From: an uncultured Eubacteriales bacterium
GTDB taxonomy: Bacteria; Bacillota; Clostridia; Oscillospirales; Acutalibacteraceae
Length of the DNA stretch: 64,000 nucleotides
Direction: 5' to 3'
NCBI GenBank assembly: GCA_934444365.1
Contig: CAKSCM010000009.1
Span: 1-64,000 of the forward strand
Below are positions 39,499 to 63,540 of this stretch, in pieces. Each line of letters opens with the position of its first letter. Position 1 is the first letter of the stretch. Under the pieces are notes generated by a model. It was given only the letters and a program-made list of their open reading frames with translations. It searched no databases and was not told the origin of the DNA. Made by a program: the position numbers and the translations under genes.

Positions 39499-40683
39499 TT
39501 ACTCGGCCTTTTTGCGAACCCTTTTTATTATTATAAAGGCGGTCGCCGCAACAAGGGCCAAAGCGACTATCGCATAAACGAATGAGCTGATTTCGGTGCG
39601 CTTGACCTGACTCCAGCCGTCGTCCATTATTTTCTGGGTGTCGGCGTCAAGATATAAAAATTCCTCACCGCGCGAGAGAATTTCGGCCGACGGATAAACC
39701 ACCTCATCGTTGTAATAAGAGTACTCGGGATCCTGCTCAACCGAGGTTATCGGGCTTGAATAGCCTATCGTCTCGGCGTTTGCAAGGGCAATCTCATGCG
39801 AGCACATAAAATTGATATACTCCTCGGCCGCCGCCTTGTTTTTGGCCCCTTTGGGAATGCACATGGCATCCACAAAAACGTTGAAGCCTTCCTTCGGGAA
39901 AACAAATTCGAGGTCGGGATTATTGGCCTGCATGGTTTTAAAATCTCCGGCATAATACGGGGCGATCGCCGCCTCGCCGCTTTCCATTTTATTAAAGACC
40001 TCATCGGCAACATAGGCCTGTACAAGGGGCTTTTGCTCCTTTAACTTCTCGGTGGCAGCATCCCACTGAGCCTTATCGGTGGTGTTGTAGCTGTAACCGA
40101 GCAGAGAAAGCGCCACGGCATATGCGTCGCGCGGGTTGTTGAACATAAGTATTTTACCGGCATACTGTTCGTCCCACATATCGGCCCATCCCTCAAGAGG
40201 CGCCGAAACCATTGTTTTATTGTAAATAATGCCGGCGGTTCCCCATGTATAAGGCACCGAATATTCGCTGTTCGGATCGTACGAAAGCGAGGTTTTTATC
40301 ACCTTTTCGTCTACGCTCTTATAATTCGGAATGTTTGAAAAATCGAGCTTTTCAAGCATATCCTCCTTTATAAGACGGGAAATCATGTAATCCGACGGGG
40401 TTATAACGTCGTAATTGGCTCCGCCTGCTTTAAGCTTTGCATACATGGTCTCATTGGTGTCGTAATTTGAGTAATTTACGGTCATTTTAACGCCGTATTT
40501 CTGCTCGTAATACTTTTCAAATTCGGCGTTGACGTCGAGCGAATCCTCAGATCCGTCCGAGATATACTCGCCCCAGTTGAACACGTTGAGTGTAACCGGG
40601 TCGTTGTTGTCGGCACTTACCGCAACGCAAAGCGACGACAAAACCACAACAAGTACAGATAAAAATGACAAAAACCTTTTCAA
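39499..40683 (-). CDS. potD: Spermidine/putrescine-type ABC transporter substrate-binding protein (PotD-like). It has an N-terminal signal peptide and an unusual C-terminal TM anchor.
   Basis: SBP_bac_8-like (PotD/PotF) sequence features. The C-terminal helix is FVYAIVALALVAATAFIII followed by basic residues. Confidence 0.65.
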   Translation of the reverse strand: MKRFLSFLSVLVVVLSSLCVAVSADNNDPVTLNVFNWGEYISDGSEDSLDVNAEFEKYYEQKYGVKMTVNYSNYDTNETMYAKLKAGGANYDVITPSDYMISRLIKEDMLEKLDFSNIPNYKSVDEKVIKTSLSYDPNSEYSVPYTWGTAGIIYNKTMVSAPLEGWADMWDEQYAGKILMFNNPRDAYAVALSLLGYSYNTTDKAQWDAATEKLKEQKPLVQAYVADEVFNKMESGEAAIAPYYAGDFKTMQANNPDLEFVFPKEGFNVFVDAMCIPKGAKNKAAAEEYINFMCSHEIALANAETIGYSSPITSVEQDPEYSYYNDEVVYPSAEILSRGEEFLYLDADTQKIMDDGWSQVKRTEISSFVYAIVALALVAATAFIIIKRVRKKAE

Positions 40684-40717
40684 TTCCTTCGTTTCTCCTT
40701 AAATAAAGATTTTTTTA

Positions 40718-41575
40718 TCACATTGAAAACCTTTTAAGGTTTTCAAGTCCTACCCTTATGCTCTCGTCCACCGGCTCCATCCCCTCGAATTCGAGAGAAA
40801 TATATCCGTCGTATCCGGCGGCCTTTAAAATGTTTATACACTGCTTTACCGGAACGCAGCCGTGGCCCAAAACCGTACCGCGAAGGTAGTTTTGTCCCCG
40901 GGTTTTAAAAAAGCAAGCCCCGGGGTCCTCGCCCGATCCAGACTTATAAAGAAAATCCTTGGCATGGATATAAAAGGCATGAGGAGCAAGCCTTGATACC
41001 GCCTTTGACGGCTCCTCATCGACGCAAAGGAAATTGCCGATATCCACAAGCAGGCCGAAATTCTCATATCCGACGGCGTTAAAAAGCGCCTCTACGCGGT
41101 CGGAATCCTGGCATATAAACCCGTGGTTCTCGGTCATTGTGCGAACACCGCTGCCCTGTGCGTATTCGGCCACTCCGCGCACGCAATCGGCGACGGATTT
41201 AAGGCCTTGATCAAAGGAAGCGAAAAATCCCCCTGCCCCGAAAACGTCATGCCGCATGAGCTTCGAGCCCATCAAGGCGGCCGCATCGACGTAACGCTTT
41301 AACCGTTCAACCTCGTTGTGCCTGCCCTTTTCATCCTTGTTAAAATCGGCAGCTATTGCAAGGTTTGTAACCTCAAGGCCGAAGCTCCTTGCCCTTTTGC
41401 CGAATTCCTCCGCAAAACCAAGAATTTCCTTATCATCAATATATCCCGAAGGACTCAGTTCAATGCCGTCAAACCCGATATCCGCCGCTTTTTTCACACA
41501 ATCGGCAAGGGTCATCTCCCCATTTGCAATGCTCCTTGCAAAGCTGTAGGTCGTAACGGAATACTTCATCTGCAA
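40718..41575 (-). CDS. Xylose-isomerase-like TIM-barrel protein (sugar phosphate isomerase/epimerase family).
   Basis: 285 aa. AP-endonuclease-2/XI-like TIM-barrel features with metal-ligand His/Glu/Asp positions. Embedded between potC and potD. Confidence 0.7.
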   Translation of the reverse strand: MQMKYSVTTYSFARSIANGEMTLADCVKKAADIGFDGIELSPSGYIDDKEILGFAEEFGKRARSFGLEVTNLAIAADFNKDEKGRHNEVERLKRYVDAAALMGSKLMRHDVFGAGGFFASFDQGLKSVADCVRGVAEYAQGSGVRTMTENHGFICQDSDRVEALFNAVGYENFGLLVDIGNFLCVDEEPSKAVSRLAPHAFYIHAKDFLYKSGSGEDPGACFFKTRGQNYLRGTVLGHGCVPVKQCINILKAAGYDGYISLEFEGMEPVDESIRVGLENLKRFSM

Positions 41576-41619
41576 GTCCTCCTACCGCTGCACTGATACA
41601 GCCGGTTTGTTATCGGCCG

Positions 41620-42435
41620 TTATTTCCCGGATGCGGAATTTGTCTTTAGCTTTTTCTCGTTGCGATTCTGCCGGACATTTATCAGTATAAGCAGCACGAG
41701 CACCACGACAAAAAGTATTGTCGAAAGGGCGTTTATGTCCGGACGAACACGTTTTTTGGTCATGGAATAAATCCTAAGCGGAAGGGTCTGAAAGCCCGGA
41801 CCGCTGACAAAATAGCTTATTACAAAATCATCGATCGAAAGGGTAAACGACATTATAAATCCGGTGATTATTCCCGGTACGACCGACGGCAAAACCGCCT
41901 TAAAAAAGGCCTTTATAGGGGTGCAGCCGAGGTCCTGAGCCGCCTCGGACAAATACCTGTCGGAGGCCTTAAGCATCGGCAGCACCGAAAAAATAACGTA
42001 GGGTAAATTAAAGGTTATATGAGCTATAAGCACGGTTACAAATCCGAGGGTCGAGGTGTTTTTAAACAGCACACCCACAAAAACAAACAGCAGCATAAGC
42101 GAAACGCCGGTTACTATGTCGGGGTTCATAAGCGGTATATTGGTAACCGCACTGACCGCTTTTTTCTGCCAGCGGTGCATATAGGATATTCCGACCGCCG
42201 CCGCCGTGCCGAGCACCGTTGCGATAACGGCCGACAAAACGGCCACTATAAGGGTGTTGTACAGCGAGCCGATGGTCTGCCTGTCGCGAAAAAGCTCGGC
42301 ATACCATTTAAACGAAAATCCCGTAAAAACTCCGGTGGAATCGCCTTTGTTAAATGAAAAGAAAATCATGACAAGGATAGGAGCATACATCAGGAAAAAA
42401 ATTATGAAAAGATATATCTTAGAGGCTTTTTTCAT
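41620..42435 (-). CDS. potC: ABC transporter permease (PotC-like).
   Basis: Six-TM BPD-transport permease. Its start overlaps the potB stop by 4 bp. Confidence 0.75.
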   Translation of the reverse strand: MKKASKIYLFIIFFLMYAPILVMIFFSFNKGDSTGVFTGFSFKWYAELFRDRQTIGSLYNTLIVAVLSAVIATVLGTAAAVGISYMHRWQKKAVSAVTNIPLMNPDIVTGVSLMLLFVFVGVLFKNTSTLGFVTVLIAHITFNLPYVIFSVLPMLKASDRYLSEAAQDLGCTPIKAFFKAVLPSVVPGIITGFIMSFTLSIDDFVISYFVSGPGFQTLPLRIYSMTKKRVRPDINALSTILFVVVLVLLILINVRQNRNEKKLKTNSASGK

Positions 42436-43256
42436 ACGACCATCGTCTCCCCTTCCCCGTCGGTATACTGGTTCATTATGGCTATGCATATAAAGATCAT
42501 GACCATAAGCACCAGCGACAGCGCCGCGCCGACATTGTAGTTATACTCCCAGTTGAACTTTGTGTCGATAACATCGCCTATAAGCATGAGGTTTCCGCCG
42601 AGCTTCTGGGAAATATAAAAGGTACTTACCGACGGAACAAACACCATGGTAACGCCCGAGGCGATTCCCGGAACACTAAGCGGCAGCACCACTCTTTTAA
42701 AAACCGACATGGCCGAGCCGCCCAGATCCTGAGCCGCCTCGATAAGGTTTTTGTCGATCTTGGTCATGACGGTATAAAGCGGCAGTATCATATACGGAAT
42801 AAAGTTGTAAACCATACCTATAACGACGGCCGCACGGGTGTTTATAACGTGTATAGGACCTATACCGATATACGAAAGCAGGCTGTTTATTATACCGGTA
42901 TCCTCCAGAATGGTCATAAGCGCATAGGTCCTCAGTATAAGATTCATCCACATCGGCAGCATGACAAGCACTATCATTATACGCTGCTTCGATTGCGGCA
43001 TTCGCGATATCATATAGGCTATCGGATATGCGATAACAAGGCTTATAACGGTAGCTACCGCACCCAGCCACACCGACAGCAAAAGGGTGTCGCCGTAATC
43101 CGCAATGGCCGAAATGTTGTTAAGCGTGAAGGCCCCATCGCTGTCGGTAAAGGCATAATAAGCCACCACGCCTAAAGGCACGACTATAAATATTACCGAC
43201 CACAAAAGGTAGGGCGCCGCGCATAGGCGCTGAGCCAAAGTGCGTTTAGCCTTCAA
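42432..43256 (-). CDS. potB: ABC transporter permease (PotB-like).
   Basis: Six-TM BPD-transport permease. Its start overlaps the potA stop. Confidence 0.75.
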
Positions 43257-44431
43257 TTCTTGTCATCCCCTTCGCTTTCTTCGCCCTCTTCGAAAATCTC
43301 GCTCGCTTCCTCCTCGGGAACGTAATCCGGATCGGAAAGATGATCCATTTCCTCGCTGAAGGTGCTGTAATCGCCGAACATTCCGGAATACTCCGATTTT
43401 TTCATAACATGTATATCCTCGGGATTAAGCACAATGCCTATATCATCCCCGACGTTTATACAGTCGGTGGTCTGTATCATCCATTTAAAGCCCTTTATAT
43501 CCACTATTACCTCATAATGGACACCCTTGAAGGTCGATCCGGTAACAATACCCGACAGATGTCCCTTTTCCGGAACGGTAACGTCTATATCCTCGGGACG
43601 TATTACTATGTCGACCGGCTCGTCCTTATCAAAGCCCTTATCGACGCAATCGAAGACCTTGCCGGCAAATTCGCACTTATAATCCTCGCGCATAATGCCG
43701 TCTAAAATATTGCTGTCCCCTATAAAATCGGCGACAAAGGCATTCTCCGGCTCGTTGTAAATATCCTGAGGGGTTCCTATCTGCTGAATTAACCCCTTAT
43801 CCATAACCACAACGCGATCGGACATGGAAAGCGCCTCTTCCTGATCGTGGGTTACGAAAATAAAGGTTATTTTAAGCCGCTGCTGTATTTTTTTAAGCTC
43901 AACCTGCATATCCTTGCGAAGCTTTAAATCAAGGGCTGCAAGCGGCTCGTCAAGAAGCAGTACCTTGGGACTTGTAACCAAAGCGCGGGCTATTGCAACA
44001 CGCTGCTGCTGACCTCCCGAAAGGGTGGCGATCCGCCGCTTTTCAAAGCCCTTTAAGCCGACAAGCTCTATCATCTCGCCGACCTTGCTTTTTATCTCCT
44101 TTTCGGGGAGCTTGCGCACCCTCAGTCCGAAGGCGACGTTCTCGAAAACGTTAAGATGCTCAAACAGCGCATAACGCTGAAATATCGTACATACCTCGCG
44201 CTTATACGGAGGAAGATCGTTGATATTCCGTCCGTCAAAAAAAACATCGCCGCTGTTCTGACTTACAAAACCCGCAATTATCCGAAGGGTAGTGGTTTTG
44301 CCGCAGCCGGAGGGGCCGAGCAATGTAACAAATTCCCCGTCTTTTATTGAAAGACTGATATCGCGAAGAATGGGTTCCGAGTCGAATTCGACGACAATAT
44401 TTTTAAGCTCTATTAAATTTTTGTCGGACAT
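43253..44431 (-). CDS. potA: ABC transporter ATP-binding protein (PotA-like) with an acidic C-terminal tail.
   Basis: Walker [18 protein letters not shown], Walker B LLLDEP. It has a C-terminal TOBE-like domain followed by an [18 protein letters not shown] tail. Confidence 0.8.
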
Positions 44432-50496: not shown

Positions 50497-51363
50497 ATGT
50501 TTTCACTTATGCGTAAAAGTGTATCCGTATTAACCGCCGCGCTTATAATAATATCCCTGCTTGTGTCAGGGGCAATTTATTCGCTTGCAACCGAAAGCTC
50601 AGTCTCGTCCGAGACCGAGCCGAGCGAAACCTCGAGCGAGATTTCCGACGTAAGCTCGGATGATAACGGTTCCGACACAAGCTCCGATGACAATAATTCA
50701 AGTGATACCGACCCGTCCGACACATCATCCGACAACACTTCGGATGATGAATCCTCGCACACCTCAAGCGAGAGCAGTTCGAGAACATCCTCACGCGAAG
50801 AGCCGTCCGAGACCTCCTCGCGCCACTCATCGAGCAATCAAAGCTCATCGTCTTCAAGGAGCAACAGCAGCACCACATCCTCAAGGAGCGATTCGGGACG
50901 CACCGAAACCTCCTCTGATGACGACGATGACGAGTATTCGAGAAACACCTCCTCGCGCACCTCGTCAAAAAAGAATAAATCCTCCAAAACGCCATCCTCT
51001 GCCCCCGAGGAATCCTCGGCAGTTGAGAGCAACGTCAAGAATATATCCGACTACGGAAAAACCGGCAAAACAATGCTTCTGATATCGGCCATTGTTGCGG
51101 TAGCCGCAGCGGCCGCGCTTATTTACATCAACCTCACGGCGCACAAAAGAATAGTTGAGGCACGCAATCGTGCACAAAGAAAGGCGAAAATCGCCGCATA
51201 TAACGCCCGCGCCCAGAAGGAAACAAAGCAGAAAAAGTCCGACGATTATGATTTCGACGGTTATAATACCGACAATTCCTCCGATGATGGACGTTTCAGC
51301 ATGAATCAGAATGACTTTGACTTCGGCGACGATTTCCTTATAAATAAGGATAAGAAAAAATAA
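50497..51363 (+). CDS. Ser/Asp-rich low-complexity membrane-anchored protein (hypothetical).
   Basis: Signal/TM N-terminus and ~150 aa of S/D/T/E repeats. Then a second TM and a basic/acidic C-terminal tail. An alternative start lies at 50509. Confidence 0.5.
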   Translation: MFSLMRKSVSVLTAALIIISLLVSGAIYSLATESSVSSETEPSETSSEISDVSSDDNGSDTSSDDNNSSDTDPSDTSSDNTSDDESSHTSSESSSRTSSREEPSETSSRHSSSNQSSSSSRSNSSTTSSRSDSGRTETSSDDDDDEYSRNTSSRTSSKKNKSSKTPSSAPEESSAVESNVKNISDYGKTGKTMLLISAIVAVAAAAALIYINLTAHKRIVEARNRAQRKAKIAAYNARAQKETKQKKSDDYDFDGYNTDNSSDDGRFSMNQNDFDFGDDFLINKDKKK

Positions 51364-53303: not shown

Positions 53304-53340
53304 AACGGGTCCGTTTATTTTAAAAACGGGCCCGTTTTTG
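53304..53340. terminator. Bidirectional terminator region with two near-palindromic hairpins (acgggtccgt; acgggcccgt followed by TTTTT).
   Basis: Seen in sequence between the convergent DUF47 and TIM-barrel genes. Confidence 0.55.
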
Positions 53341-53405: not shown

Positions 53406-54149
53406 TTATTCAACCAACTGCTTTATGCAATCGATATCCTTTATAAAATTATCGTCCTCGTCGTCCTTTACAAACTCGAGAATAAAATTGCACTCATCAT
53501 GCGCTGCCTTTACTCGGCTTATGAATTTCTGCCATTTTTCGGTTCCCTCGCTCATGAGAAAACGCTGTCCCCTATCGTCCCAGTTAAAAACGTGCACCGT
53601 TACGATATAGTCGAGGACCTTCGATAAATTCTTGTCGTCGGTCCCGTCGGAAAAAGGCTGCCAGTAGGTCTTAACATTCGGTTTATTAACCTTGTTTATA
53701 AGACGGACGGTGTTCTCTCCGCAATCGTTAAAGGTAACGTGGTGGAACTCAAAGCCGATAGTTACAGAATACTTTTGCGCAATATCGGCCATTCGCGAGA
53801 CCTCATCGCACAGCGCGAGAAATTCTTCCTCGCTTGTTTCGGCAGAGGCTTTAAGCCCGAGCCAGACGCGAACGATTCTCGCTCCCAGTATATCGGCCGT
53901 TTTGCAAACCCTTTCAAAGGCGGCCATGTCGTTAAAGCCTACCCTGTAGTAGCTGCCATAGGAAACGCTCTTTATGCCGGCCGCATCGCAAAGTGCGCGT
54001 ACGCGCTTCGCGTTTTCCTCGTTATCGGGCGGAACATGAACGTCTCCTCCCCATTCAATGCAGTTTATTCCGGCTTTTTTTGCAATATCAATTATTTCCT
54101 CAACGCTTTTTTTTCTGAAGGTAACGGTCGTAAAGCCTATGTTGTACAT
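53406..54149 (-). CDS. Xylose-isomerase-like TIM-barrel protein (sugar phosphate isomerase/epimerase).
   Basis: 247 aa with XI/AP-endonuclease-2-like TIM-barrel features. Confidence 0.7.
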   Translation of the reverse strand: MYNIGFTTVTFRKKSVEEIIDIAKKAGINCIEWGGDVHVPPDNEENAKRVRALCDAAGIKSVSYGSYYRVGFNDMAAFERVCKTADILGARIVRVWLGLKASAETSEEEFLALCDEVSRMADIAQKYSVTIGFEFHHVTFNDCGENTVRLINKVNKPNVKTYWQPFSDGTDDKNLSKVLDYIVTVHVFNWDDRGQRFLMSEGTEKWQKFISRVKAAHDECNFILEFVKDDEDDNFIKDIDCIKQLVE

Positions 54150-54185: not shown

Positions 54186-55181
54186 TCAGGCCATGGTTTT
54201 AAGCATGTCTAAAGTAACCGAATATTTAGGCTCTCCCCCAGATGTTATGCGCAAAAACTCATCGATCATCCAGTCGGCCAGACGGTTGCGCTCGTTACCG
54301 ATGCTGCCGGCTATATGTGGCGTGATTATAACGTTCGGGCATTCGCAAAGCGGGCTGTCTTTTTTAACGGGCTCGGGCCATGTAACGTCAAGAAGGGCTG
54401 TCAGCGACGGGTTTTTCTTCATAGCCTCAGCTAAATCCGCCTCGTTCACCTGAGCGCCCCGACCAGTGTTTATAAAGGTCGAGCAGGGCTTCATTCTTGA
54501 AAAAAGCGACAGATTATATATGCCGTTTAGTTCCTGCTTGTTGGCGAGATGGTTGGTTATGACGTCGCAGCTTTCGAATATTTCCTCAAGGCTTACAAGG
54601 GTGATGCCAAGTTCATCGGCGCGCTCCTTCGGTAAGAATTTATCAAAGGCATACACCTCACACTCGGTGCTCTTAAGCCGCTCGCACACCATTGAGCCTA
54701 TGGCGCCGACTCCGCATACGCCGACTTTGGCCTTGTATGATCCCTTTAAATCGTAATCGAAGCCGGCGGGAAATACGTTGTGCTTCGGGTAGTTCTGGGT
54801 GCTGAAAAAGCCTTTTAGCGCCAGCATTATCTGAGCAAAGGTATATTCGGCTACCGGTATTCCGTTTGCAACCCATGCGCTCGACACGAAAATTCCGTTT
54901 TCCAAAAACTCCTTTGCAAAGCCCTGAACACTGCCGGCGGCATAAAGCACCGCTTTAAGGTTCGGGAAGCATTTTTTTATTTCCTCGTCCGAAAAACGCG
55001 GCATACCCCAGGTTGAAAACAGATACTCGGTATCGGCCGATATCGACGGATCGTGCATGAGCTCGCTCTTTGTGTAAACGCCGTCGCAAAGCTCGCTGTT
55101 CGCCTGCAGCCTGCCTACCTGAGCCTTTGCGTAAACGGCTTTTGCCGCGTCCTTATTATCGGAAAAAATCATGGTTTTCAT
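54186..55181 (-). CDS. D-isomer-specific 2-hydroxyacid dehydrogenase family (NAD-dependent).
   Basis: Rossmann segment GVCGVGAIGSMV and the catalytic TPHIAGS region. Confidence 0.8.
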   Translation of the reverse strand: MKTMIFSDNKDAAKAVYAKAQVGRLQANSELCDGVYTKSELMHDPSISADTEYLFSTWGMPRFSDEEIKKCFPNLKAVLYAAGSVQGFAKEFLENGIFVSSAWVANGIPVAEYTFAQIMLALKGFFSTQNYPKHNVFPAGFDYDLKGSYKAKVGVCGVGAIGSMVCERLKSTECEVYAFDKFLPKERADELGITLVSLEEIFESCDVITNHLANKQELNGIYNLSLFSRMKPCSTFINTGRGAQVNEADLAEAMKKNPSLTALLDVTWPEPVKKDSPLCECPNVIITPHIAGSIGNERNRLADWMIDEFLRITSGGEPKYSVTLDMLKTMA

Positions 55182-55386: not shown

Positions 55387-57351
55387 TCAATAAACGTTTC
55401 GGTTTTCGCGGTAGCCGCGCCAGACATTCTCAAAAAAGCCTCCGCCGTCGGGAAGGGCTCTTACATCCCGCCATCCGACAAATGCCTTAAGGTTTCCCTC
55501 TAAAGCCACCTGTTCCACCATTTTGTCAAGCGCGCCGTCGTCGGGGATGAATCTGAATATATCCTCAAGTCCGTCCGGCTTTACGCCGTTTTCGTTTGTG
55601 TAAAGGGCCGAGCCGCGCGACTTTCCGCCCTTTTCGGAATATCCGGCAAAGGCCGTAAGATAAACATACTGAGCCGCCAGCGTGTCACGCAAACGATAAA
55701 GCATTCTGAGTGCTTCGGGCGAGCTTACTCCGGCGTTATCAAGTAAAACGAGCTCCTCTTTTACCTTAACGGCATATTCGCCGATGGCTTTGGGCGAACG
55801 TATGGCCCCGGCACATTCGCTCATTGATTTGCGTGCCTTTTTAAGCTTCATTACGGCGCTGTCGCCGCCGTTTTCAAGCACCCTTTCGCAAAGCGCAATA
55901 TGAAATCTTAACTTTTTATCGGCGGCGGCGAAAAATTCATCGTCGCGCGACGGCTCATTGGGCCTTGCGGCGATGTATGAGGCCGCTCTTAATGATCCGA
56001 CCTGACCGGCGTTAAGAGCGCTTCCGCCCGGACGGTATACACCGTGTGTTCCGGCACATTCTCCGGCCGCAAAAAGCCCCTTTATATCGGTCTGCCACCA
56101 CATATCAACCGCTATTCCGCCGTTATTATGCTGTGCGCAAAGCGAAATTTCAAGCGGCTGCCTCGTTATATCGACTCCCTTCGATCTGTAAAGCTCGACC
56201 GCCGGCATATTCATATGCGAAAGTCGCTCAATCGGAGTGCCGAAATCGGCTCCGGCATTTTTGAGATAATCCCTTGCCTCATCGCTTAAATCGCCAAAAG
56301 GAATCTCTTTGAGTCCGAACGGATTACGGGTGAAATCAAGAAATACCCTCCTGCCACGCATGAACACCTCGCGGTAAACAAGCAGATCTATAACCGACGA
56401 GCCGTTTTGCGCCTTTCGGCTGTCAAAGGGCCATTCATAGCCCTTTTTAAACACCATGGAAAGGGCCTTGGCGTCATCGGAATAGTATTCGCTTAAAAAC
56501 TCATATTCATTGCCCTGCTCGTCACGGGAGAAAAATCTCGGCAGTACCTGCATATAGGTTCCCGAAACATTCCAGCGCGGGGCGATTGATGCGAGTCCGT
56601 ACTGCCATTCGGTAAGATTCTGTCCCTTTGCTCCGGCCAAAAACGCCACTCCCGAGGCACCGGCATGTCCCACCGGATAAACGGTATCGCTGTAAATTCC
56701 GGCCGGTCCTCCGGTTGCATAGATTATATCATGCGCTTTAAAAAGGGTAAAGCGCGTGTTTTTATCGTCTGCCCCGTCCAAATTGAGACAAAGCACACCG
56801 AGCGCTTTGTTATTATCGGTTATAATCTCGATTACCTGCTGCTTGTCAAAAACGGTGACATCGCGGCGCAAGGCCTCCTTTTGCAGACATTCGGTCATCA
56901 TTTTAGAGGTAAGCGGACCCACCGACGTGGCTCTGGCCCGTGTATCGTGGTCGGTTTTATAGCCGACGTATTCGCCGAAGTTATTCACCGGGAAATCCAC
57001 CCCGAGCTCGCAAAGCGACAAAAAGCAGCGCACCGAATTGGCCGCTTCTGCAAGAGCATTGTCGCCGTCAACGCATTTGCCGGCAAAAAGCTCCGATGCC
57101 ATTGAGTGGGGAGAATCGTCGTCCGCCGCGCAAAGGTTCATTTTGTAGTAGGTCTGCTTGTCCGAACCGGTATTGCGCGAGGTTCCCATGTCGACCCCCT
57201 CGGTGATTATTGCAATATCGTCCACCCCGAGCTTTTTAAGCTGAACGGCCGCATTGTAGCCGGCGGCTCCCGTTCCGATTATTGCCGCGTCAAGGGTAAC
57301 GGTTTTTATGTTTATTCCGTCAAAGCTGTGTATTTCGGTCTTCATGTACAT
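55387..57351 (-). CDS. FAD-dependent oxidoreductase of the fumarate-reductase/succinate-dehydrogenase flavoprotein family, with a ~200-aa C-terminal extension.
   Basis: N-terminal dinucleotide fold IIGTGAAG. SdhA-like RPGGSALNAG motif. 654 aa. Confidence 0.7.
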   Translation of the reverse strand: MYMKTEIHSFDGINIKTVTLDAAIIGTGAAGYNAAVQLKKLGVDDIAIITEGVDMGTSRNTGSDKQTYYKMNLCAADDDSPHSMASELFAGKCVDGDNALAEAANSVRCFLSLCELGVDFPVNNFGEYVGYKTDHDTRARATSVGPLTSKMMTECLQKEALRRDVTVFDKQQVIEIITDNNKALGVLCLNLDGADDKNTRFTLFKAHDIIYATGGPAGIYSDTVYPVGHAGASGVAFLAGAKGQNLTEWQYGLASIAPRWNVSGTYMQVLPRFFSRDEQGNEYEFLSEYYSDDAKALSMVFKKGYEWPFDSRKAQNGSSVIDLLVYREVFMRGRRVFLDFTRNPFGLKEIPFGDLSDEARDYLKNAGADFGTPIERLSHMNMPAVELYRSKGVDITRQPLEISLCAQHNNGGIAVDMWWQTDIKGLFAAGECAGTHGVYRPGGSALNAGQVGSLRAASYIAARPNEPSRDDEFFAAADKKLRFHIALCERVLENGGDSAVMKLKKARKSMSECAGAIRSPKAIGEYAVKVKEELVLLDNAGVSSPEALRMLYRLRDTLAAQYVYLTAFAGYSEKGGKSRGSALYTNENGVKPDGLEDIFRFIPDDGALDKMVEQVALEGNLKAFVGWRDVRALPDGGGFFENVWRGYRENRNVY

Positions 57352-57359
57352 TCCCCTTT

Positions 57360-58127
57360 TTACAGCCGCTGAATATGGAAACCGCCGTCAACGTCTATCG
57401 ACTGGCCGGTAGTATATCCGAAACGATCCGAACAGAGGGCTCCTATAACCTTGGCAACGTCCTCGGGATATCCCCAGCGTTTTATCGGAAGGAGTCCGCC
57501 GTCAATAAGATCGTCATACTTTTTCTTTACGGTCGAGGTCATGCCGGTTGCGATTATGCCCGGTCTTATCTCGTTTACGATTATTCCCTCGCTTGCAAGA
57601 CGGTCGGCAAAAAGGGTGGTTATCATGGAAACGCCGGCTTTTGAGATGCAGTATTCTCCGCGGCTTACCGAGCTTGTATATGCCGACATGGACGATATGT
57701 TAACAATATATCCGTGAATATCTTCGGTTCGGGGTCTTTCAAGCATTTTCTTTGCGACCGCCTGGGTTAAAAACATGGTCGCCTTGGTGTTTACGCCCAT
57801 TACCCTGTCGTAGCTTTCCTCGGTCATTTCGAGGATATCGGCGCGCACCTTTGGCGCTATGCCGGCGACGTTTACAAGAGCGTCAATACGGCCGAATTTT
57901 TCCAAAGTACGGTCGATAAAGCGCTGTCTGTCGTCGGATTTTGAAAGATCGCCGACGGTATAAAGCACCCGGTCCTTCATTTCGCCTAAACGGTCGTTTG
58001 CCGTATTTTCGTCAAGCATATCAAAGGCCGATACGTCGTATCCGTCCGATATAAGCTGCTTTACGGCAGCAAATCCGATACCGCCCATAGCCCCCGTTAT
58101 CATTGCGCATTTTTTCATTTTTATCAT
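57360..58127 (-). CDS. Short-chain dehydrogenase/reductase (SDR).
   Basis: TGAMGGIG cofactor motif and the catalytic YxxxK (YCISK). Confidence 0.85.
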   Translation of the reverse strand: MIKMKKCAMITGAMGGIGFAAVKQLISDGYDVSAFDMLDENTANDRLGEMKDRVLYTVGDLSKSDDRQRFIDRTLEKFGRIDALVNVAGIAPKVRADILEMTEESYDRVMGVNTKATMFLTQAVAKKMLERPRTEDIHGYIVNISSMSAYTSSVSRGEYCISKAGVSMITTLFADRLASEGIIVNEIRPGIIATGMTSTVKKKYDDLIDGGLLPIKRWGYPEDVAKVIGALCSDRFGYTTGQSIDVDGGFHIQRL

Positions 58128-58194: not shown

Positions 58195-59511
58195 TTATTT
58201 TTTGCAGTACTGCTTGTAATAAGGCAAATACACCTCAGAATCGCGCACGACGCACCCGGCGACCGTACCGGCGCGCATGAGCTCGGTGCATTTACTGCAC
58301 GCGATGCAGCATTTTTTCTCATCGAAGCAGCCGTTTAAAATGTCGTTCGCGAACTGCTCGTAAGCAAAGGCCTCCCTGCCGAATCCCGCTATATCGGCTA
58401 TTCCCCGCTCTATTACAGCGGCGGCAAGATTGGGAGCGAATTTTCTAAGATAAGAATGTCCGGAGCTTATAACGGTTAAATCCGGATAGGCCTTTTTAAG
58501 GGCTTTAATGCAGTCGAACATCCTGGCAACTCCCTCAAGCGGATGCTCGGGCGGAACATATCCCCCCATATCAAACGGGCGGTTCACATGCGGATTAAAA
58601 TACGGATTTCCGATGGTGAAATCGAGCATTTTAATTCCGAGGTCGTTATGTATTATCCCCACAAGCTTAATCGGCTCGTCAAGATCGGGGGTAATGCTGC
58701 CGTCGTTTTTAACCCCGAATCCGTTCGGATAGGCGAATCCGTCGTAAAGATTAAGCCGCGATGTAATCTTAAAGCTATCATCCTGCTCGCTCAGTGCGTT
58801 TTTAAGGGCGGTAAGGTAAAGCCTTGTACGGTTTTCGAACGATCCGCCGTATTTTCCCGGCCTCTCGTAAGCGGAGCAAAGCTCGCTGAATAAATACCTG
58901 TGACAGCATTTTACATCGGCCGCATCGAAGCCGGCTTCCTTAGCCATGGCGGCCGCCGGACCGAAATGATCGGCCACCGAATCAAGATAATCGTCGCTGA
59001 CAATGGCGCTGTCATCAATAGGATTATTCTTTTCGAATACCGAATTGTGATAGGCTATAAGCGGCTGAGGATAGCCGTTCGGCTTGGCATACCGTCCCGA
59101 ATGGGTCAGCTGACATACAAGATACGGCTCAAAGCCGTTATGCCGCATACATTCCTCTTTAGTATCGTTTACAAGCTTTTTAAATGCGTCTAAATTATCC
59201 TTGTTGATATAAAGCTGGCGCGGATTGGCTCTGCCCTCCTTCATGACGGCGGTTGCCTCTCCCCATATAAGACCGGCGCCGCTTCTCGCAAAGCGCATAT
59301 AGCGCCTGAAGGTTAGCTCATCGGGTTTGCCGTCCGGCGTGCCGTCGCACCCTTCCATCGGCTGTATGGCTATGCGGTTTTTAATGTGCGGTTCGGGGAG
59401 TTCGTTTTTTAAAATGCCGGTATTCTCCGAAAGGGGAATATCCACCGACAGCCTTTGTATTTCGCTTTTTAATTCCTCGTATGTTTTGTAATGATACCGT
59501 TCAAAATTCAT
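58195..59511 (-). CDS. Old-Yellow-Enzyme-like FMN oxidoreductase carrying a FadH-type [4Fe-4S] Cys motif but no C-terminal reductase domain.
   Basis: OYE TIM-barrel motif QLTHSGR. CxxCxxC-x11-C motif (CIACSKCTELMRAGTVAGC). 438 aa. Confidence 0.75.
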   Translation of the reverse strand: MNFERYHYKTYEELKSEIQRLSVDIPLSENTGILKNELPEPHIKNRIAIQPMEGCDGTPDGKPDELTFRRYMRFARSGAGLIWGEATAVMKEGRANPRQLYINKDNLDAFKKLVNDTKEECMRHNGFEPYLVCQLTHSGRYAKPNGYPQPLIAYHNSVFEKNNPIDDSAIVSDDYLDSVADHFGPAAAMAKEAGFDAADVKCCHRYLFSELCSAYERPGKYGGSFENRTRLYLTALKNALSEQDDSFKITSRLNLYDGFAYPNGFGVKNDGSITPDLDEPIKLVGIIHNDLGIKMLDFTIGNPYFNPHVNRPFDMGGYVPPEHPLEGVARMFDCIKALKKAYPDLTVISSGHSYLRKFAPNLAAAVIERGIADIAGFGREAFAYEQFANDILNGCFDEKKCCIACSKCTELMRAGTVAGCVVRDSEVYLPYYKQYCKK

Positions 59512-60355
59512 TTAATCCATTGTTCTCCTTACTGTGTGCATTCCTGTATTCACGCGGGGTCAGCCCGGTGTCGTTCTTTAAATAACGCGAAAAATTCCCT
59601 CCGGTCGAAAAGCCGGTCTCCTCGGCGATCTTGGAGGCGCTGAGACTGGTCGAACAAAGCATATCCTTCGCAATCGACAGCCTGTGCTCCGATAAATATT
59701 CCATCACCCCGTAGCCCGTTATCTCCTTAAACAGATGGGAAAGATAGCTTTTTGAAACATGGTGTTTTTTTGCCAGAATGTCAAGGGAATAAAAGGCCGA
59801 ATAGTTATTTTCGAATTCCTTTTGTATATCCTCCACTATTGTGTTTTTTACCGTCGCCTTCATCGGAAAGCTCTCGGGCGAAAAACGGTAAAGGCGGATA
59901 AGCAGAATTCTAAGCAACGATTTTTGCATTTCGTCGACAAAAAGCCCCGACTCCGAATACTCCCTTGCAAGACATTTGAATACCCATTCGATGTCCTCCG
60001 CTATATCCGACACGTCAATAAGGTGATTAAAGAATTCCGGACGGTTCGAAAAAATTGAGCAGATCGTGCTGTTTTTTATCGCATACCGCACCGAAACCGG
60101 TGAAACCTGTATGCAATAGCGCTCGTAATCGTCGGTAAGCGGTTCGACCGAATGCTGTTCGAGATTGCTTATAAAAAATACGCTCTTTTCGCCGACGAAA
60201 TAATCCTTTCCCGAACAGCGGATATGGGCCTTCCCCCGGCGGATATAAAGAATTTCGTGACAATTATGATAATGCACGGCAAAACCGTTGCTTCCCGAAG
60301 CAAAATATGCGGTCTGTATAAGAGAGTTATCCATAACGTATTCCACCTTTTCCAT
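59501..60355 (-). CDS. AraC-family transcriptional regulator (N-terminal cupin sensor plus C-terminal HTH).
   Basis: C-terminal AraC HTH (…HHVSKSYLSHLFKEITG…LSASKIAEETGFSTGGNFSRYLK). Confidence 0.85.
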   Translation of the reverse strand: MEKVEYVMDNSLIQTAYFASGSNGFAVHYHNCHEILYIRRGKAHIRCSGKDYFVGEKSVFFISNLEQHSVEPLTDDYERYCIQVSPVSVRYAIKNSTICSIFSNRPEFFNHLIDVSDIAEDIEWVFKCLAREYSESGLFVDEMQKSLLRILLIRLYRFSPESFPMKATVKNTIVEDIQKEFENNYSAFYSLDILAKKHHVSKSYLSHLFKEITGYGVMEYLSEHRLSIAKDMLCSTSLSASKIAEETGFSTGGNFSRYLKNDTGLTPREYRNAHSKENNGLNEF

Positions 60356-60701: not shown

Positions 60702-61556
60702 ATGAGCAATTTTTCAATCGGCGTTTTACTCGATTCCTTCAGATGCGATTTCCCCTCGGCCATGAAAAAGGCCGCTTCGATGGGCATTACCGGTCTTCAG
60801 GTGTATGCCACCGGCGGCGATATGGCGCCCGAAAACATGACCGACGCCAAAATCAGGGACTTTTTGTCCGAGTGCAATGATAACGGACTGACCGTCTCGG
60901 CGCTGTGCGGAGACCTCGGCCAGGGCTTTTCCGACAAGGAGAAAAATCCGGCCCTTATAGCCCGTTCCAAGCTGATACTTGATCTGGCTAAAAAAATGGG
61001 CACCGATATAGTCACGACCCACATAGGCGTAGTGCCCGAGGACGAGCATTGCGACACCTACAAAATAATGCAAGAGGCCTGCTTTGAACTTAGCAGCTAT
61101 GCCGACAGCATCGGCTCGCATTTTGCGGTTGAGACCGGTCCCGAGCCGGCCGAGCGTCTTTGCAGATTTCTCGATACCCTCTCCTCCACCGGCGTTGCGG
61201 TAAATCTCGATCCTGCAAACCTTGTAATGGTAACCGGCGACGATCCCGTAAAGGCGGTATACACCCTTAAAAAATACATCGTTCACACCCACGCCAAGGA
61301 CGGCAAAATGTTAAAACGCACAAATGCAAACGAGATATACTCCGGCGACGCCCAAAGCGATCTCGAAGCACAGGGAGCGGCCTTTATAGAGCTGCCGCTC
61401 GGTCAGGGCGACGTCGATTATCCGGCCTATCTTGCCGCTCTTAAAAGCATAGGCTACAACGGATTTTTGACCATTGAGCGCGAGGTCGGCGAAAATCCCG
61501 ACGCCGACATACGTCTTGCCGCCGACTTCTTACGCGAAAAAATAAGCGAGATGTAA
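60702..61556 (+). CDS. Xylose-isomerase-like TIM-barrel protein (sugar phosphate isomerase/epimerase).
   Basis: 284 aa with XI-like TIM-barrel features. Divergent from the AraC gene. Confidence 0.7.
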   Translation: MSNFSIGVLLDSFRCDFPSAMKKAASMGITGLQVYATGGDMAPENMTDAKIRDFLSECNDNGLTVSALCGDLGQGFSDKEKNPALIARSKLILDLAKKMGTDIVTTHIGVVPEDEHCDTYKIMQEACFELSSYADSIGSHFAVETGPEPAERLCRFLDTLSSTGVAVNLDPANLVMVTGDDPVKAVYTLKKYIVHTHAKDGKMLKRTNANEIYSGDAQSDLEAQGAAFIELPLGQGDVDYPAYLAALKSIGYNGFLTIEREVGENPDADIRLAADFLREKISEM

Positions 61557-61734
61557 GGGTTAACTGCTTCCTGTTTTCCCGCAAAAGCAGTAATAAGTGC
61601 ACGATATGCAGTATATCGTGCACTTTTTTTGTGTTGTTTTCAAAAGGGCTTTGTGGTATTTTTAAATGGTATGAGTGTTGCGCCCGATAAATAAGAAGCA
61701 ATCATCCGGCGCAATACCAAGGAGGGTAAAATTA

Positions 61735-63540
61735 ATGACCGATCTCGAAAAAATAAAACTAAAATATACCGACTGTCTGTTTATATCCCAAAAGGGCACT
61801 TGCGACATTTTGCCGATAAAGGCGGAGGGCTCGCTTAAATTCGCCGATGTCGACTACGAGGACAAGACCCTTTCGGAATGGAAAACGCCCGAGCATTTGC
61901 GCCGCGCCTGCAAAATTGCGGCCTCAGGCGGAAAAGAAAAGCTTAAAAACGATAAGGAATTCCGGGATACAGTACTTTCCCTTTTTAATTTCTGGCTTAA
62001 AAACGATTTTACAAATCCCAACTGGTGGCATAATCAGATAGGAGTTCCCCGTCTTGTATCATATCTCTGCCTGTTTTTAAGGGATTATCTGAGTGACGAG
62101 CAAAAGGAAATGTGCGAAAAAATACTGCTTCGCGGCTCGCTCGGAGGAAACGCTGCAATAAACTCCTGGACCGGGGCCAACCTTATGTGGGGAATATTCG
62201 GGACGGTAAACCATGCGCTTATAAGTGATAACAGCGAGCTTTTAAAAACGGCCGTTGACCGCGCCATGCGCGAGGTTGATATAATGGATGGATTAAAAGA
62301 GGGAATAAAGCCCGATATGTCCTTTTATCAGCACGGACCGATGATATACACCTACGGATACGGACGGGATTTTACGCACGACTGCGCTCTGCTTTTTTAC
62401 ATTCTCTCCGGAACCGAATTCATGCCGTCACAGGAAAAGACCGGCCTGTTCGAGGATTTTATTCTCGACGGCAGCAGATGGTTCGCCTGCCATAGCTTCG
62501 CCGATTACATGACCGTAGGACGTGAGATATCAAGAAAAAATGCCCTGTCGCTTGAAAAAATCGCATTTGCCTTAAAGCTGATGACCGAAACCGCCGAATA
62601 TAAAAGGAAGGACGAGATTTCCTCCTTTTACCGGTCGCTTACCGATAAATCCGCCCCTCAGATAACCGGACTTCGCGAGTTTAAAAACTCATATATGATA
62701 GTTTCGAGAACGAATAACACCTACATGTCGGCCAAAGGGGCGCACAAGGACTATCTTTGCTGTGAAGCCGGCAACTACGAAAACTATCTTTCGGCAAACT
62801 ATTTTTCGGGACAAACCGTTTGCTTTATGTCAAAGGGCGACGAATACTTCAATTTATCGCCGGTATACGATTACTCGGTCATTCCCGGAGTAACCGCATT
62901 TTTGCAAAACGACGAAAAGCTGCTTGAGCGCATGGGTAATTACGCCCACTGGATCAACGAAAAAGGGAAAACCGACTGTTTCGGATTAAAATGCAAAAAC
63001 GGTATCGGCGTAATGGCAATGGAAATTGTAAACGACGGCATAACCGGTTATTGCTCGAGAATTACCAAAAACGGGAACATGCTTTTGCTCACAAGCTCAA
63101 TAAACGCCGGAAACGACTGCTGCCAGAATGTAGTAACGGCGGTCGATCAGTGCCGTCTGCGGGAAAACTGCACCGTAAAAACCGGCGAAAAACAGCTGAT
63201 TTTAAAGGGATCAAGCGTTACAAACGGAGCCTTTACCTATACAAATCTTTCGGATACGCCCCTTTTCGCCGAGGCAATAAATGCAAAGGGCAACTGGAAG
63301 CGCAACAATCTTGACATGACGACCGATCCGGTCGAAACCGGCGTTTTCAAGCTGTATTTCGAACACAAAAAGGCCCCGTCGAACGCCTCGTGTGCGGTTC
63401 TGGTAAGCGAAAACGGCAGTGAGATGCCGTTTGATGTATCGGATGTAACCCTCCTTCAAAACTGTCACTCGGTAAAAATTTCTCCCGATGTAAAAATCGA
63501 CATCGCTTTCGAAGGCGAGCAGTGTGAGATCAATTTTTAA
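61735..63540 (+). CDS. Polysaccharide-lyase-like protein (heparinase II/III or PL8-like). It has an N-terminal alpha-toroid with an NWWH motif and a C-terminal beta-sandwich region.
   Basis: Start set at the ATG with AAGGAGGG RBS. N-terminal helical region with PNWWHNQ. C-terminal beta-rich ~250 aa. Family assignment is tentative. Confidence 0.45.
   Translation: MTDLEKIKLKYTDCLFISQKGTCDILPIKAEGSLKFADVDYEDKTLSEWKTPEHLRRACKIAASGGKEKLKNDKEFRDTVLSLFNFWLKNDFTNPNWWHNQIGVPRLVSYLCLFLRDYLSDEQKEMCEKILLRGSLGGNAAINSWTGANLMWGIFGTVNHALISDNSELLKTAVDRAMREVDIMDGLKEGIKPDMSFYQHGPMIYTYGYGRDFTHDCALLFYILSGTEFMPSQEKTGLFEDFILDGSRWFACHSFADYMTVGREISRKNALSLEKIAFALKLMTETAEYKRKDEISSFYRSLTDKSAPQITGLREFKNSYMIVSRTNNTYMSAKGAHKDYLCCEAGNYENYLSANYFSGQTVCFMSKGDEYFNLSPVYDYSVIPGVTAFLQNDEKLLERMGNYAHWINEKGKTDCFGLKCKNGIGVMAMEIVNDGITGYCSRITKNGNMLLLTSSINAGNDCCQNVVTAVDQCRLRENCTVKTGEKQLILKGSSVTNGAFTYTNLSDTPLFAEAINAKGNWKRNNLDMTTDPVETGVFKLYFEHKKAPSNASCAVLVSENGSEMPFDVSDVTLLQNCHSVKISPDVKIDIAFEGEQCEINF

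Follow-up and report, generated by a model that had tools for sequence, protein, structure and literature searches.

A stand-alone Old Yellow Enzyme-type protein with a predicted [4Fe-4S] site and its genetic coupling to a fumarate reductase-like flavoprotein

The OYE gene and its cysteine site

The DNA considered here, referred to as the window, is a stretch of 64,000 nucleotides from an uncultured Eubacteriales bacterium (contig CAKSCM010000009.1). A run of six genes on its minus strand encodes an AraC-family regulator, an Old Yellow Enzyme (OYE)-type protein, a short-chain dehydrogenase/reductase (SDR), a large flavoprotein remotely related to fumarate reductase (designated FRD), a 2-hydroxyacid dehydrogenase-family protein, and a TIM-barrel protein. 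The subject of this analysis is the OYE, in which a flavin mononucleotide (FMN)-binding barrel would be joined to a C-terminal [4Fe-4S] site; it is genetically coupled to FRD and SDR by gene order, by spacing, and by gene fusion in both orientations. The gene and its motifs are the following.

58195..59511, minus strand: OYE-type FMN TIM-barrel gene with predicted C-terminal [4Fe-4S] site (438 amino acids, ATG start)
59092..59112, minus strand: QLTHSGR (residues 134-140), FMN-contacting beta-3 motif of OYEs, aligned to QLAHAGR of YqjM
58894..58911, minus strand: K201-C-C-H204-R-Y206, positions of the substrate-binding pair and of the proton-donor Tyr by alignment
58576..58608, minus strand: NPYFNPHVNRP (residues 302-312), a family-specific invariant loop of low confidence in the model
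58252..58308, minus strand: C402-x2-C405-x2-C408-x11-C420, putative cluster motif from the translation and the FadH alignment

Oxidored_FMN (PF00724) is the sole Pfam family assigned to the protein (68.1 bits against a gathering cut-off of 27, residues 42-257). Identities as BilR, BaiCD, NamA, or mycofactocin-OYE were considered and rejected, all of them remaining below the NCBIfam cut-offs. A model calculated with AlphaFold2 (AF2) from an alignment with 22 homologues shows the OYE TIM barrel at a mean predicted local distance difference test (pLDDT) of 86.5 and a predicted template modeling (pTM) score of 0.89, with low confidence in the loop 303-315 and in the Cys loop 406-420. Only OYE barrels are found among the Foldseek matches of this model in the PDB, with E values down to 1e-21 and target-normalized TM scores of about 0.75-0.81 for TsER, TOYE, and YqjM. 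The top query-normalized TM scores among the best 50 PDB matches are those of 2-naphthoyl-CoA reductase (NCR; 6qkg, 0.67) and FadH (1ps9, 0.66), which are the two Fe-S OYEs with solved structures.

The FMN motifs Q50-P51-M52, Q134, R252, and G376-F-G-R379 are invariant and aligned to those of YqjM and FadH, and the FMN-binding motifs of beta-1, beta-3, beta-5, and beta-8 are all intact. QLTHSGR, which the initial annotation had taken as the OYE active-site motif, belongs to this set as the FMN-contacting beta-3 element. K201, H204, and Y206 occupy the positions of His164, His167, and Tyr169 of YqjM, with Y206 also corresponding to Tyr166 of FadH, and they fall within an invariant D199-x-K-x-C-H-R-Y206. 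At the place of the substrate-binding pair stands K201/H204 instead of H/H or H/N, and a Tyr is present at that of the proton donor. In the alignment of homologues, many charged residues of the active site and pocket are invariant. The NPYFNPHVNRP loop may serve as a lid or as an interface.

Residues 402-420 read CIACSKCTELMRAGTVAGC, i.e., CxxCxxC-x11-C, and C420 is followed only by VVRDSEVYLPYYKQYCKK and the stop codon, the protein ending 18 residues past its last Cys. When the C-terminal 179 residues alone were compared with the PDB sequences, only five matches were obtained, namely, FadH, trimethylamine dehydrogenase (wild type and a variant), histamine dehydrogenase, and 6l6j, a 672-amino acid Oxidored_FMN protein whose CIGCNAC is aligned with the window Cys motif. 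HMMER places C402, C405, C408, and C420 on C334, C337, C341, and C353 of E. coli FadH, with one residue fewer between the second and the third Cys than in FadH, which is the spacing of trimethylamine dehydrogenase. A MAFFT alignment of the N-terminal 375 residues of E. coli FadH with the window OYE and 18 family members, taken from all architectures including the fusions, contains four all-Cys columns. The positional equivalence with the FadH cluster ligands, on which the initial annotation had relied, is borne out, the HMMER and MAFFT columns being coincident. Across 22 homologues of 56-65% identity, none of the four Cys varies, unlike the additional C401. As judged from these alignments, the match of the four conserved Cys is not due to chance, and the window OYE carries a FadH-equivalent four-Cys site that is predicted to harbor a [4Fe-4S] cluster.

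The further description of the protein as a stand-alone OYE with such a site and without an FAD/NAD(P)H module has likewise held, both in the alignments and in tblastn searches of the window. Pfam gives no PF07992 (Pyr_redox_2) match in the OYE, full-length FadH is aligned to the gene over FadH residues 17-356 only (tblastn), and in tblastn searches the 64-kb window gave no match to the C-terminal domain of FadH, to a GltD/PreT-like module, or to a PreA-like Fe-S barrel. Among the matches listed, more than 100 homologues have 432-458 amino acids and PF00724 only; an exhaustive HMMER search of 1.8 billion representatives yielded 376 clusters at E<=1e-30, mostly of about 440 amino acids. Since this length is conserved across the family, the window OYE is not a truncation. 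A relative is encoded in at least 597 GTDB species genomes, with carriers such as Butyricicoccus pullicaecorum DSM 23266, Bianquea renquensis, and many Oscillospiraceae, Acutalibacteraceae, and Faecousia metagenome-assembled genomes (MAGs); Anaerocolumna sp. MB42-C2 also has a family member (P0092).

The OYE-SDR-FRD cassette

The two genes directly downstream of the OYE gene complete the core of the cassette.

57360..58127, minus strand: classical SDR, 255 amino acids, 67 nt downstream of the OYE gene and 8 nt from the FRD gene
55387..57351, minus strand: FRD, 654-amino acid FAD_binding_2 protein and candidate redox partner, 205 nt from the next gene

For the comparison from the OYE side, 80 species loci were collected by tblastn with the window proteins, 55 of which extend at least 4.5 kb downstream and 33 of which have wide flanks. 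SDR is present in 53 of the 55 and FRD in 49, and the order OYE-SDR-FRD is kept in 48. A metagenome scan with FRD motifs provided 80 loci for the comparison from the FRD side; among the 31 with adequate flanks, SDR is adjacent in 27 and OYE nearby in 20. Outside the Clostridia, the order is TIM-OYE-FRD-SDR in an Acidobacteriia locus (10 nt from OYE to FRD) and OYE-FRD-SDR in an Aminicenantes locus, where the genes are 2 nt apart and are followed by a fused KDPG-aldolase/PfkB gene. A Bacteroidales locus and the P0165 locus have the form OYE::FRD-SDR, i.e., the two flavoproteins are fused. Family members were found in the following fusions.

P0165 (1084 amino acids): OYE + FRD
P0145 (1060 amino acids, L089:6001-9183): FRD-like + OYE, i.e., the reverse order
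P0124, P0133, P0170, P0201: OYE + Fer4_20 + Pyr_redox_2, the PreT/GltD-type NAD(P)H-FAD-2x[4Fe-4S] module
P0122: Gfo/Idh/MocA + OYE
P0123: xylose-isomerase-like TIM barrel + OYE
P0204: OYE + 2-hydroxyacid dehydrogenase
P0161: OYE + HAD

Over all 654 residues, the window FRD and the FRD half of P0165 share 41% identity, and the FRD part of the OYE::FRD fusions is, by sequence, orthologous to the window protein. Six more full-length OYE::FRD fusions (P0271-P0276) were retrieved in a search with P0165, bringing the total to seven with 51-58% mutual identity; in alignment A3, five of the further fusions are 55-58% identical to P0165. The records come from NCBI, JGI, ENA, and Logan and include a Bacteroidales MAG. 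Since diverged copies are thus known from independent sources, the fusion is considered real and maintained. From the same search it is evident that stand-alone FRD proteins of about 670 amino acids are widespread in Acidobacteriota, Aminicenantes, Calditrichota, and KSB1. The gene of P0145 is found directly after a zinc-dependent alcohol dehydrogenase (Zn-ADH) gene, which itself follows an O-demethylase-like cluster of corrinoid-protein, methyltransferase, and pterin-binding genes; this context is unlike that of the sugar cassettes described below.

The OYE paralogues fused to the PreT/GltD-type module are of 46-50% identity and have kept K201/H204/Y206 and the NPxxNPH loop. They have neither FRD nor SDR nearby, and one of them is located among TIM-barrel genes. 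A different kind of protein, a DHODH/PreA-like FMN barrel of 409-426 amino acids with a C-terminal 2x[4Fe-4S] ferredoxin domain, is encoded near SDR-FRD in four loci. In L164 (7814-9064) its gene lies directly upstream of SDR, which is the usual place of OYE; in L109 it is on the opposite strand with several genes between, in L112 the region was not resolved by open reading frame (ORF) calling, and in L107 it occurs together with OYE. The PreA-like barrel seems to replace the FMN/Fe-S partner without being homologous to it, and an FMN and Fe-S barrel of other descent beside SDR-FRD would be expected if that pair needs such a partner.

FRD scores 84 bits with PF00890 and is, by sequence, a remote member of the SdhA/FrdA/NadB/AprA superfamily. 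In the AF2 model of the fusion P0165, calculated from the 59-row alignment A3, both domains are confident (pLDDT 87.4). The FRD domain superposes on E. coli FrdA with target-normalized TM scores of 0.79-0.82 and also on SdhA, on the alpha subunits of APS/PAPS reductases, and on NadB; according to the model, FRD has the four-domain fold of the complex-II flavoproteins. The catalytic positions, read from an alignment with E. coli FrdA and NadB, are occupied as follows.

FrdA His44 (covalent FAD): FRD Q66
FrdA His232 (catalytic): FRD G252
FrdA Thr234 (catalytic): FRD A254
FrdA Arg287 (proton donor): FRD S318
FrdA His355 (catalytic): FRD Q407, with H408 next to it
FrdA Arg390 (catalytic): FRD R440, retained

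The replacements are the same across 29 FRD family members from several phyla, and on account of them fumarate reductase, L-aspartate oxidase, and APS reductase were ruled out as identities; matches to all NCBIfam equivalogs are far below cut-off. The family has invariant motifs of its own (GTSxNxGSDKQTYYK, TDHD, RWNxSGxYxQ, KGYxWPFD, AQHxNGG, and RPGGxALN), and no conserved Cys is present in the 29-member alignment. Complex-II-fold flavoproteins such as FrdAB, SdhAB, and AprAB exchange electrons with a docked Fe-S subunit. With no conserved Cys, no His for covalent FAD, and a fold that docks Fe-S subunits, FRD would need an external electron carrier. A site for NAD(P)H is presumably lacking, as in the superfamily at large. 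The FrdA-like neighbour had been proposed as a partner that would supply the electrons in place of the missing reductase module. It is by far the best candidate for a partner, given the order kept in 48 of 55 loci and the seven fusions, but it is not a like-for-like replacement of that module: the fold comes without an expected NAD(P)H site, and the catalytic residues of FrdA/NadB are lost.

For SDR, the match to PRK12745 (307 bits, cut-off 250) carries the name 3-ketoacyl-ACP reductase, which was dropped because the nearest structures are unannotated SDRs from structural genomics and the context is not that of fatty-acid synthesis. SDR is predicted to be an ordinary NAD(P)-dependent enzyme of the ketoreductase type. 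It had also been named as a possible electron partner of the OYE; a step of the pathway is the more likely role for an enzyme of this type.

What function the cassette may have is read from genomics only, and its surroundings suggest a role in the catabolism of sugars or sugar acids. Among the 33 wide-flank loci, AraC is adjacent in 21, and the TIM barrel and the 2-hydroxyacid dehydrogenase are present in 17 and 15, respectively. Carbohydrate genes in the flanks include glycoside hydrolase (GH) family GH28 with a TRAP transporter and Gfo/Idh/MocA, GH3 with an ABC sugar transporter, and GH2 with GH78. On the FRD side, the neighbours are distributed over the loci as follows.

Gfo/Idh/MocA: 15
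LacI: 11
PfkB kinase: 10
Zn-ADH: 9
TRAP DctM: 9
KDPG aldolase: 8
ILVD/EDD-type sugar-acid dehydratase: 5

TRAP DctPQM transporters are among the sugar-acid context genes, and near the Acidobacteriia, Aminicenantes, Bacteroidales, and P0165 cassettes GH38, Gfo/Idh/MocA, SSF transporters, or DegT-type aminotransferases are encountered. A bile-acid, steroid, or CoA-ester setting is not what is found: the neighbours are carbohydrate and sugar-acid genes, and the BaiCD and BilR models are far below their cut-offs. A heparinase II/III-like lyase lies between OYE and SDR in a few loci, its ORF cluster spanning five loci, and PL8-like genes (polysaccharide lyase family 8) are present 3' of FRD in L046 and L050. 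Together with the PL8 lyase of the window, these inserts and neighbours hint that unsaturated uronates derived from lyases feed the cassette.

Gene content varies among the lineages. The heparinase II/III-like lyase inside the cassette is found in L079 (8047-9849), and the same ORF cluster also in L051, L058, and L077. In the sub-lineage of L043, L044, and L047, OYE and SDR stand beside a divergent GH2 glycosidase and an ABC-F protein, FRD not being within reach, and Bianquea renquensis (L026) has the genes for 2-hydroxyacid dehydrogenase, TIM, and OYE, in this order, but no SDR or FRD. In the non-Clostridial loci L179:1-7986, L091:823-7573, and L092:2564-7640, a partly shared gene set precedes the cassette: an unannotated protein of about 530-570 amino acids and a TIM barrel are common to all three, an SSF transporter to L179 and L092, and a DegT/DnrJ/EryC1-type aminotransferase and an unannotated protein of about 760 amino acids to L179 and L091.

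The remaining features around the cassette in the window are the following.

59501..60355, minus strand: AraC-family regulator, overlapping the OYE start by 11 nt
54186..55181, minus strand: D-2-hydroxyacid dehydrogenase family protein, 36 nt from the TIM-barrel gene
53406..54149, minus strand: xylose-isomerase-like TIM barrel (AP_endonuc_2 in Pfam), last gene before the hairpin
53304..53336, no strand assigned: hairpin with a near-perfect 13-bp palindromic stem, between the convergent PhoU-like and TIM-barrel genes
60702..61556, plus strand: second xylose-isomerase-like TIM barrel, divergent, upstream of AraC
61675..63540, plus strand: PL8 polysaccharide lyase, divergent, upstream of AraC
40718..41575, minus strand: third xylose-isomerase-like TIM barrel, inside an ABC sugar-transporter operon (39499-44431)

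In the window and in L001, its metagenome twin of 99% identity, AraC is co-directional with OYE and has the 11-nt overlap; in most other species it is divergent from OYE. For the TIM barrel at 53406-54149, no sequence relative was found in the PDB, and NCBIfam matches are below threshold. The hairpin is followed by a T-run on the plus strand; it likely ends the minus-strand operon and is probably the terminator for both convergent genes. The divergent pair of TIM barrel and PL8 lyase (60702..63540) possibly feeds the cassette. The lyase reaches 150 bits with the chondroitinase-AC model (cut-off 1000), and the lack of an obvious signal peptide at its N-terminus points to a location in the cytoplasm, with imported oligosaccharides as substrates. 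Within 36-64 kb, the part of the window examined for it, there was no sign of a GH88/GH105 unsaturated uronyl hydrolase. The genes at 36-50 kb (ABC transporter, third TIM barrel, amidohydrolase, S-adenosylhomocysteine hydrolase, EamA, and prolyl-tRNA synthetase) give no additional clue to the function of the cassette, and a gene on the plus strand at 50497-51363 encodes a 288-amino acid protein composed mostly of Ser/Asp/Thr/Glu low-complexity sequence with N-terminal and C-proximal hydrophobic segments.

Direction of electron flow

With a probability of roughly 0.5, the product of the OYE gene would be the catalytic subunit, with FMN and [4Fe-4S], of a split flavoenzyme system. Its [4Fe-4S] cluster would act as a one-electron port connecting the two flavins in the sequence OYE FMN, [4Fe-4S], FRD FAD, with electrons able to pass in either direction; this would be a FadH-like wiring in which the FAD protein is non-homologous and, in place of an NAD(P)H site, has an active site of the substrate type. 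The OYE would reduce an activated C=C bond, either of an enone or of an enoate held by K201/H204/R205. The associated TIM-barrel and dehydrogenase enzymes would make its substrate from a keto-sugar or a sugar acid, SDR would subsequently reduce a carbonyl, and the route would feed 2-keto-3-deoxy-sugar-acid (KDG-type) metabolism. FRD would either donate electrons by oxidizing another pathway intermediate or accept them. The OYE is favoured as the substrate-reducing site because paralogues with the same active-site features are fused to an NAD(P)H-to-Fe-S module, because family members are fused to sugar-pathway enzymes, and because the pocket is lined with invariant charged residues.

Several observations weigh against this assignment. 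FRD is not nearby in six of the 55 OYE loci (L026, L043, L044, L047, L065, and L076), and OYE is not within reach in 11 of the 31 FRD loci. The flanks are highly heterogeneous, with no neighbour beyond the core in more than about 20% of the loci, and for this reason the inference of a substrate is weak. With OYE as the reductase, the electron balance requires a further oxidative half-reaction, binding of NAD(P)H by FRD not being expected. In the AF2 model of P0165, the pTM is only 0.64 and the pLDDT of the Cys loop 38-64, and there is no confident interface between the domains. Finally, the opposite assignment applies in ARD and Crd, where the OYE-like domain serves as NADH dehydrogenase and the reductase is the FAD_binding_2 domain (bioRxiv 10.1101/2022.01.20.477176).

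A reversal of roles is the main rival and, by analogy, one with real precedent, although it is held to be rather unlikely. The OYE-[4Fe-4S] protein would oxidize NAD(P)H, the electrons would exit via the cluster, and FRD would reduce an unsaturated sugar-derived acid, so that the scheme would mirror the NADH:acrylate and NADH:cinnamate reductases with the cluster in place of the covalent FMN relay. Classical OYEs indeed oxidize NAD(P)H at their FMN, and an exit of electrons from FMN via a cluster is established for trimethylamine dehydrogenase, whose homology to the window protein has been computed. The ARD/Crd systems pair an OYE-like NADH dehydrogenase with an FAD_binding_2 reductase (bioRxiv 10.1101/2022.01.20.477176, 10.1101/2023.03.04.531086), in one OYE cluster about 20% of the members are fusions with fumarate-reductase-like domains, and, seen from the FRD side, the pairing with SDR (27/31) is tighter than that with OYE (20/31). 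On the other hand, paralogues with the same active-site residues are fused to the NAD(P)H/FAD/2x[4Fe-4S] module, which would hardly be sensible for an enzyme that itself oxidizes NAD(P)H. The many invariant charged residues and the family-specific loop of the OYE active site also speak against this assignment, the fusions to TIM barrel, Gfo/Idh/MocA, 2-hydroxyacid dehydrogenase, and HAD point to a metabolite substrate of its own, and FRD is without the residues that bind and protonate enoates in FrdA/NadB.

Alternatively, OYE, SDR, and FRD might be consecutive but electronically independent enzymes, with a general ferredoxin or flavodoxin serving the OYE cluster, a possibility to which a similarly low likelihood is assigned. 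The loci in which one flavoprotein occurs without the other (6/55 and 11/31) would be accounted for in this way, as would the failure of the fusion model to show a confident packing of the two domains. Short BilR works with the separately encoded flavodoxin-like BilS (PMC10769871). Moreover, fusions of consecutive enzymes are common, and TIM-barrel and dehydrogenase enzymes are among the fusion partners of the same OYE. Yet FRD has no cluster of its own and no expected NAD(P)H site while showing the fold of flavoproteins coupled to Fe-S subunits; the OYE::FRD fusions exist in both orders and have been kept over 51-58% divergence; and a non-homologous FMN/Fe-S barrel is found near SDR-FRD in four loci, in L164 in the very place of OYE. 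Neither in the OYE-side nor in the FRD-side flanks is there a ferredoxin or flavodoxin gene as a conserved neighbour.

That the cluster is structural or vestigial and the OYE an ordinary NAD(P)H-dependent ene-reductase is improbable. In favour of it stands Nox of Rhodococcus erythropolis MI2, the only characterized stand-alone OYE with such a motif, which oxidizes NADH (bioRxiv 10.1101/2023.07.10.548207); against it stand the invariance of the four Cys across the family and every fusion type, the fusion of OYEs to PreT/GltD-like electron-input modules, and the almost universal pairing with a cofactor-compatible partner. That the protein is a known Fe-S OYE in disguise (short BilR or BaiCD/BaiH/5-beta-reductase type), or a truncated pseudogene of one, can be practically dismissed: NCBIfam matches to bilirubin reductase and BaiCD models exist, and the bili_reduct_N model likewise ends just past the Cys motif, but the matches are weak (70.1 versus 425 for bili_reduct_N, 71.7 versus 750 for long-form BilR, and 66.6 versus 825 for BaiCD), the 438-amino acid sequence is without the HGDR motif used as a filter for BilR (PMC10769871), the gene context is one of carbohydrates and not bilQRS or bai, with AraC, SDR, and FRD as adjoining genes, and the conserved length speaks against truncation.

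Carried further, the split-system reading would lead to a more speculative and considerably less probable proposal, according to which OYE-[4Fe-4S] and a re-tooled FRD form a nicotinamide-independent two-flavin complex (FMN-[4Fe-4S]-FAD) that oxidizes one intermediate and reduces the C=C bond of another. It would be placed within an unrecognized, widespread anaerobic route from keto-sugars or lyase-derived unsaturated uronates to 2-keto-3-deoxy-sugar acids in Clostridia, Bacteroidales, Acidobacteriota, Aminicenantes, and others. If true, such a nicotinamide-free couple would represent a novel way of wiring ene-reductases, with interest for biocatalysis.

Comparison with known systems

Fe-S flavoenzymes of the FadH/BaiCD/BilR type carry out many reductions of bile acids, sterols, bilirubin, and polyphenols in gut anaerobes and, to our knowledge, all well-understood ones draw their electrons from a built-in NAD(P)H/FAD domain. 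With the FadH/2-enoate reductase subfamily (BaiCD, BaiH, daidzein reductase (DZNR), NCR, and IsmB) the window OYE shares the barrel, the FMN motifs, and the position of the catalytic Tyr; with FadH it shares the four Cys column for column, and FadH and NCR give the top query-normalized TM scores among the best 50 matches. It differs in that a C-terminal Pyr_redox_2 domain is absent from the protein and from the window, in its CxxCxxC, as in trimethylamine dehydrogenase, versus CxxCxxxC in FadH, in the K/H pair that replaces the usual substrate-binding pair, and in a carbohydrate context instead of one of CoA esters or steroids. IsmB, the coprostanol 5-beta-reductase of Oscillospirales-like gut bacteria, came into question on account of the SDR plus Fe-S OYE logic and was set aside, being a full-length BaiCD-type protein that is not clustered with its SDR.

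The equol trio of gut anaerobes can be likened to the cassette by superfamily only, its members being a daidzein reductase of OYE-FeS-FAD composition, a dihydrodaidzein reductase of the SDR type, and a tetrahydrodaidzein reductase with FAD_binding_2. The same three superfamilies are clustered there; DZNR, however, has its own FAD/NAD(P)H domain, and the window context is one of sugar catabolism.

In PreA/PreT and GltD-like modules, too, an FMN TIM-barrel ene-reductase is fed via [4Fe-4S] from a separate or fused FAD module, and some OYE family members are fused to exactly Fer4_20 and Pyr_redox_2. The window barrel, in contrast, is an OYE and not DHODH-like, and its partner is FRD and not PreT. 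In ARD/Crd of Vibrio, as in the proposed system, an OYE-type FMN domain is wired to an FAD domain of the fumarate reductase superfamily via a one-electron relay. That relay is a covalently bound FMN (FMN_bind) versus the [4Fe-4S] cluster proposed for the window system; neither the window proteins nor the natural OYE::FRD fusions have a Pfam match to FMN_bind. The OYE-like domain of ARD/Crd is class-III-like and acts as NADH dehydrogenase, and the FAD domain is said to reduce acrylate or cinnamate; the window FRD, by contrast, is without the catalytic residues of FrdA/NadB.

Short BilR consists of a barrel on its own, with homology to the N-terminal domain of long BilR, and works with the flavodoxin-like BilS (Hall et al. 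2024, PMC10769871). Common to both cases are the stand-alone Fe-S OYE barrel, the existence of a long form with extra domains, and an electron partner encoded next door. In the window, however, that partner would be a complex-II-like FAD protein of 650 amino acids, and the operon adds SDR and sugar enzymes.

The stand-alone Fe-S OYE architecture as such is already on record and not new. In the literature searched, no description was found of a systematic pairing of an Fe-S OYE with a FRD of the FrdA fold, nor of fusions in two orders, of interchangeable PreT/PreA-like modules, or of a link to sugar acids. The present comparison suggests that the same FMN-cluster core is used with interchangeable partners, i.e., a complex-II-like FAD protein, a PreT/GltD-like module, or none nearby. 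Two large uncharacterized families are thereby brought to attention, the OYE-FeS proteins and the FRD flavoproteins with GSDKQTYYK/KGYxWPFD motifs, and both appear to take part in the catabolism of sugars or sugar acids by anaerobes, at a step so far unassigned. Many of the carriers are gut Oscillospirales, including the cultured Butyricicoccus pullicaecorum, and environmental anaerobes are also among them.

The closest precedent for the architecture is a network survey of OYEs, in which single-domain proteins with a C-terminal CxxCxxCxnC were aligned to the ligands of 2-enoate reductase (bioRxiv 10.1101/2023.07.10.548207). The motif occurs there in clusters 7 (with "Nox" of R. erythropolis), 10, 14, 18, and 20, and the question is raised whether the Fe-S cluster is structural or serves an auxiliary binding partner (bioRxiv 10.1101/2023.07.10.548207). 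The survey observed the same architecture and names no partner. With FRD as candidate partner, a concrete and testable answer to the question posed in the literature about the role of the cluster in stand-alone Fe-S OYEs is offered.

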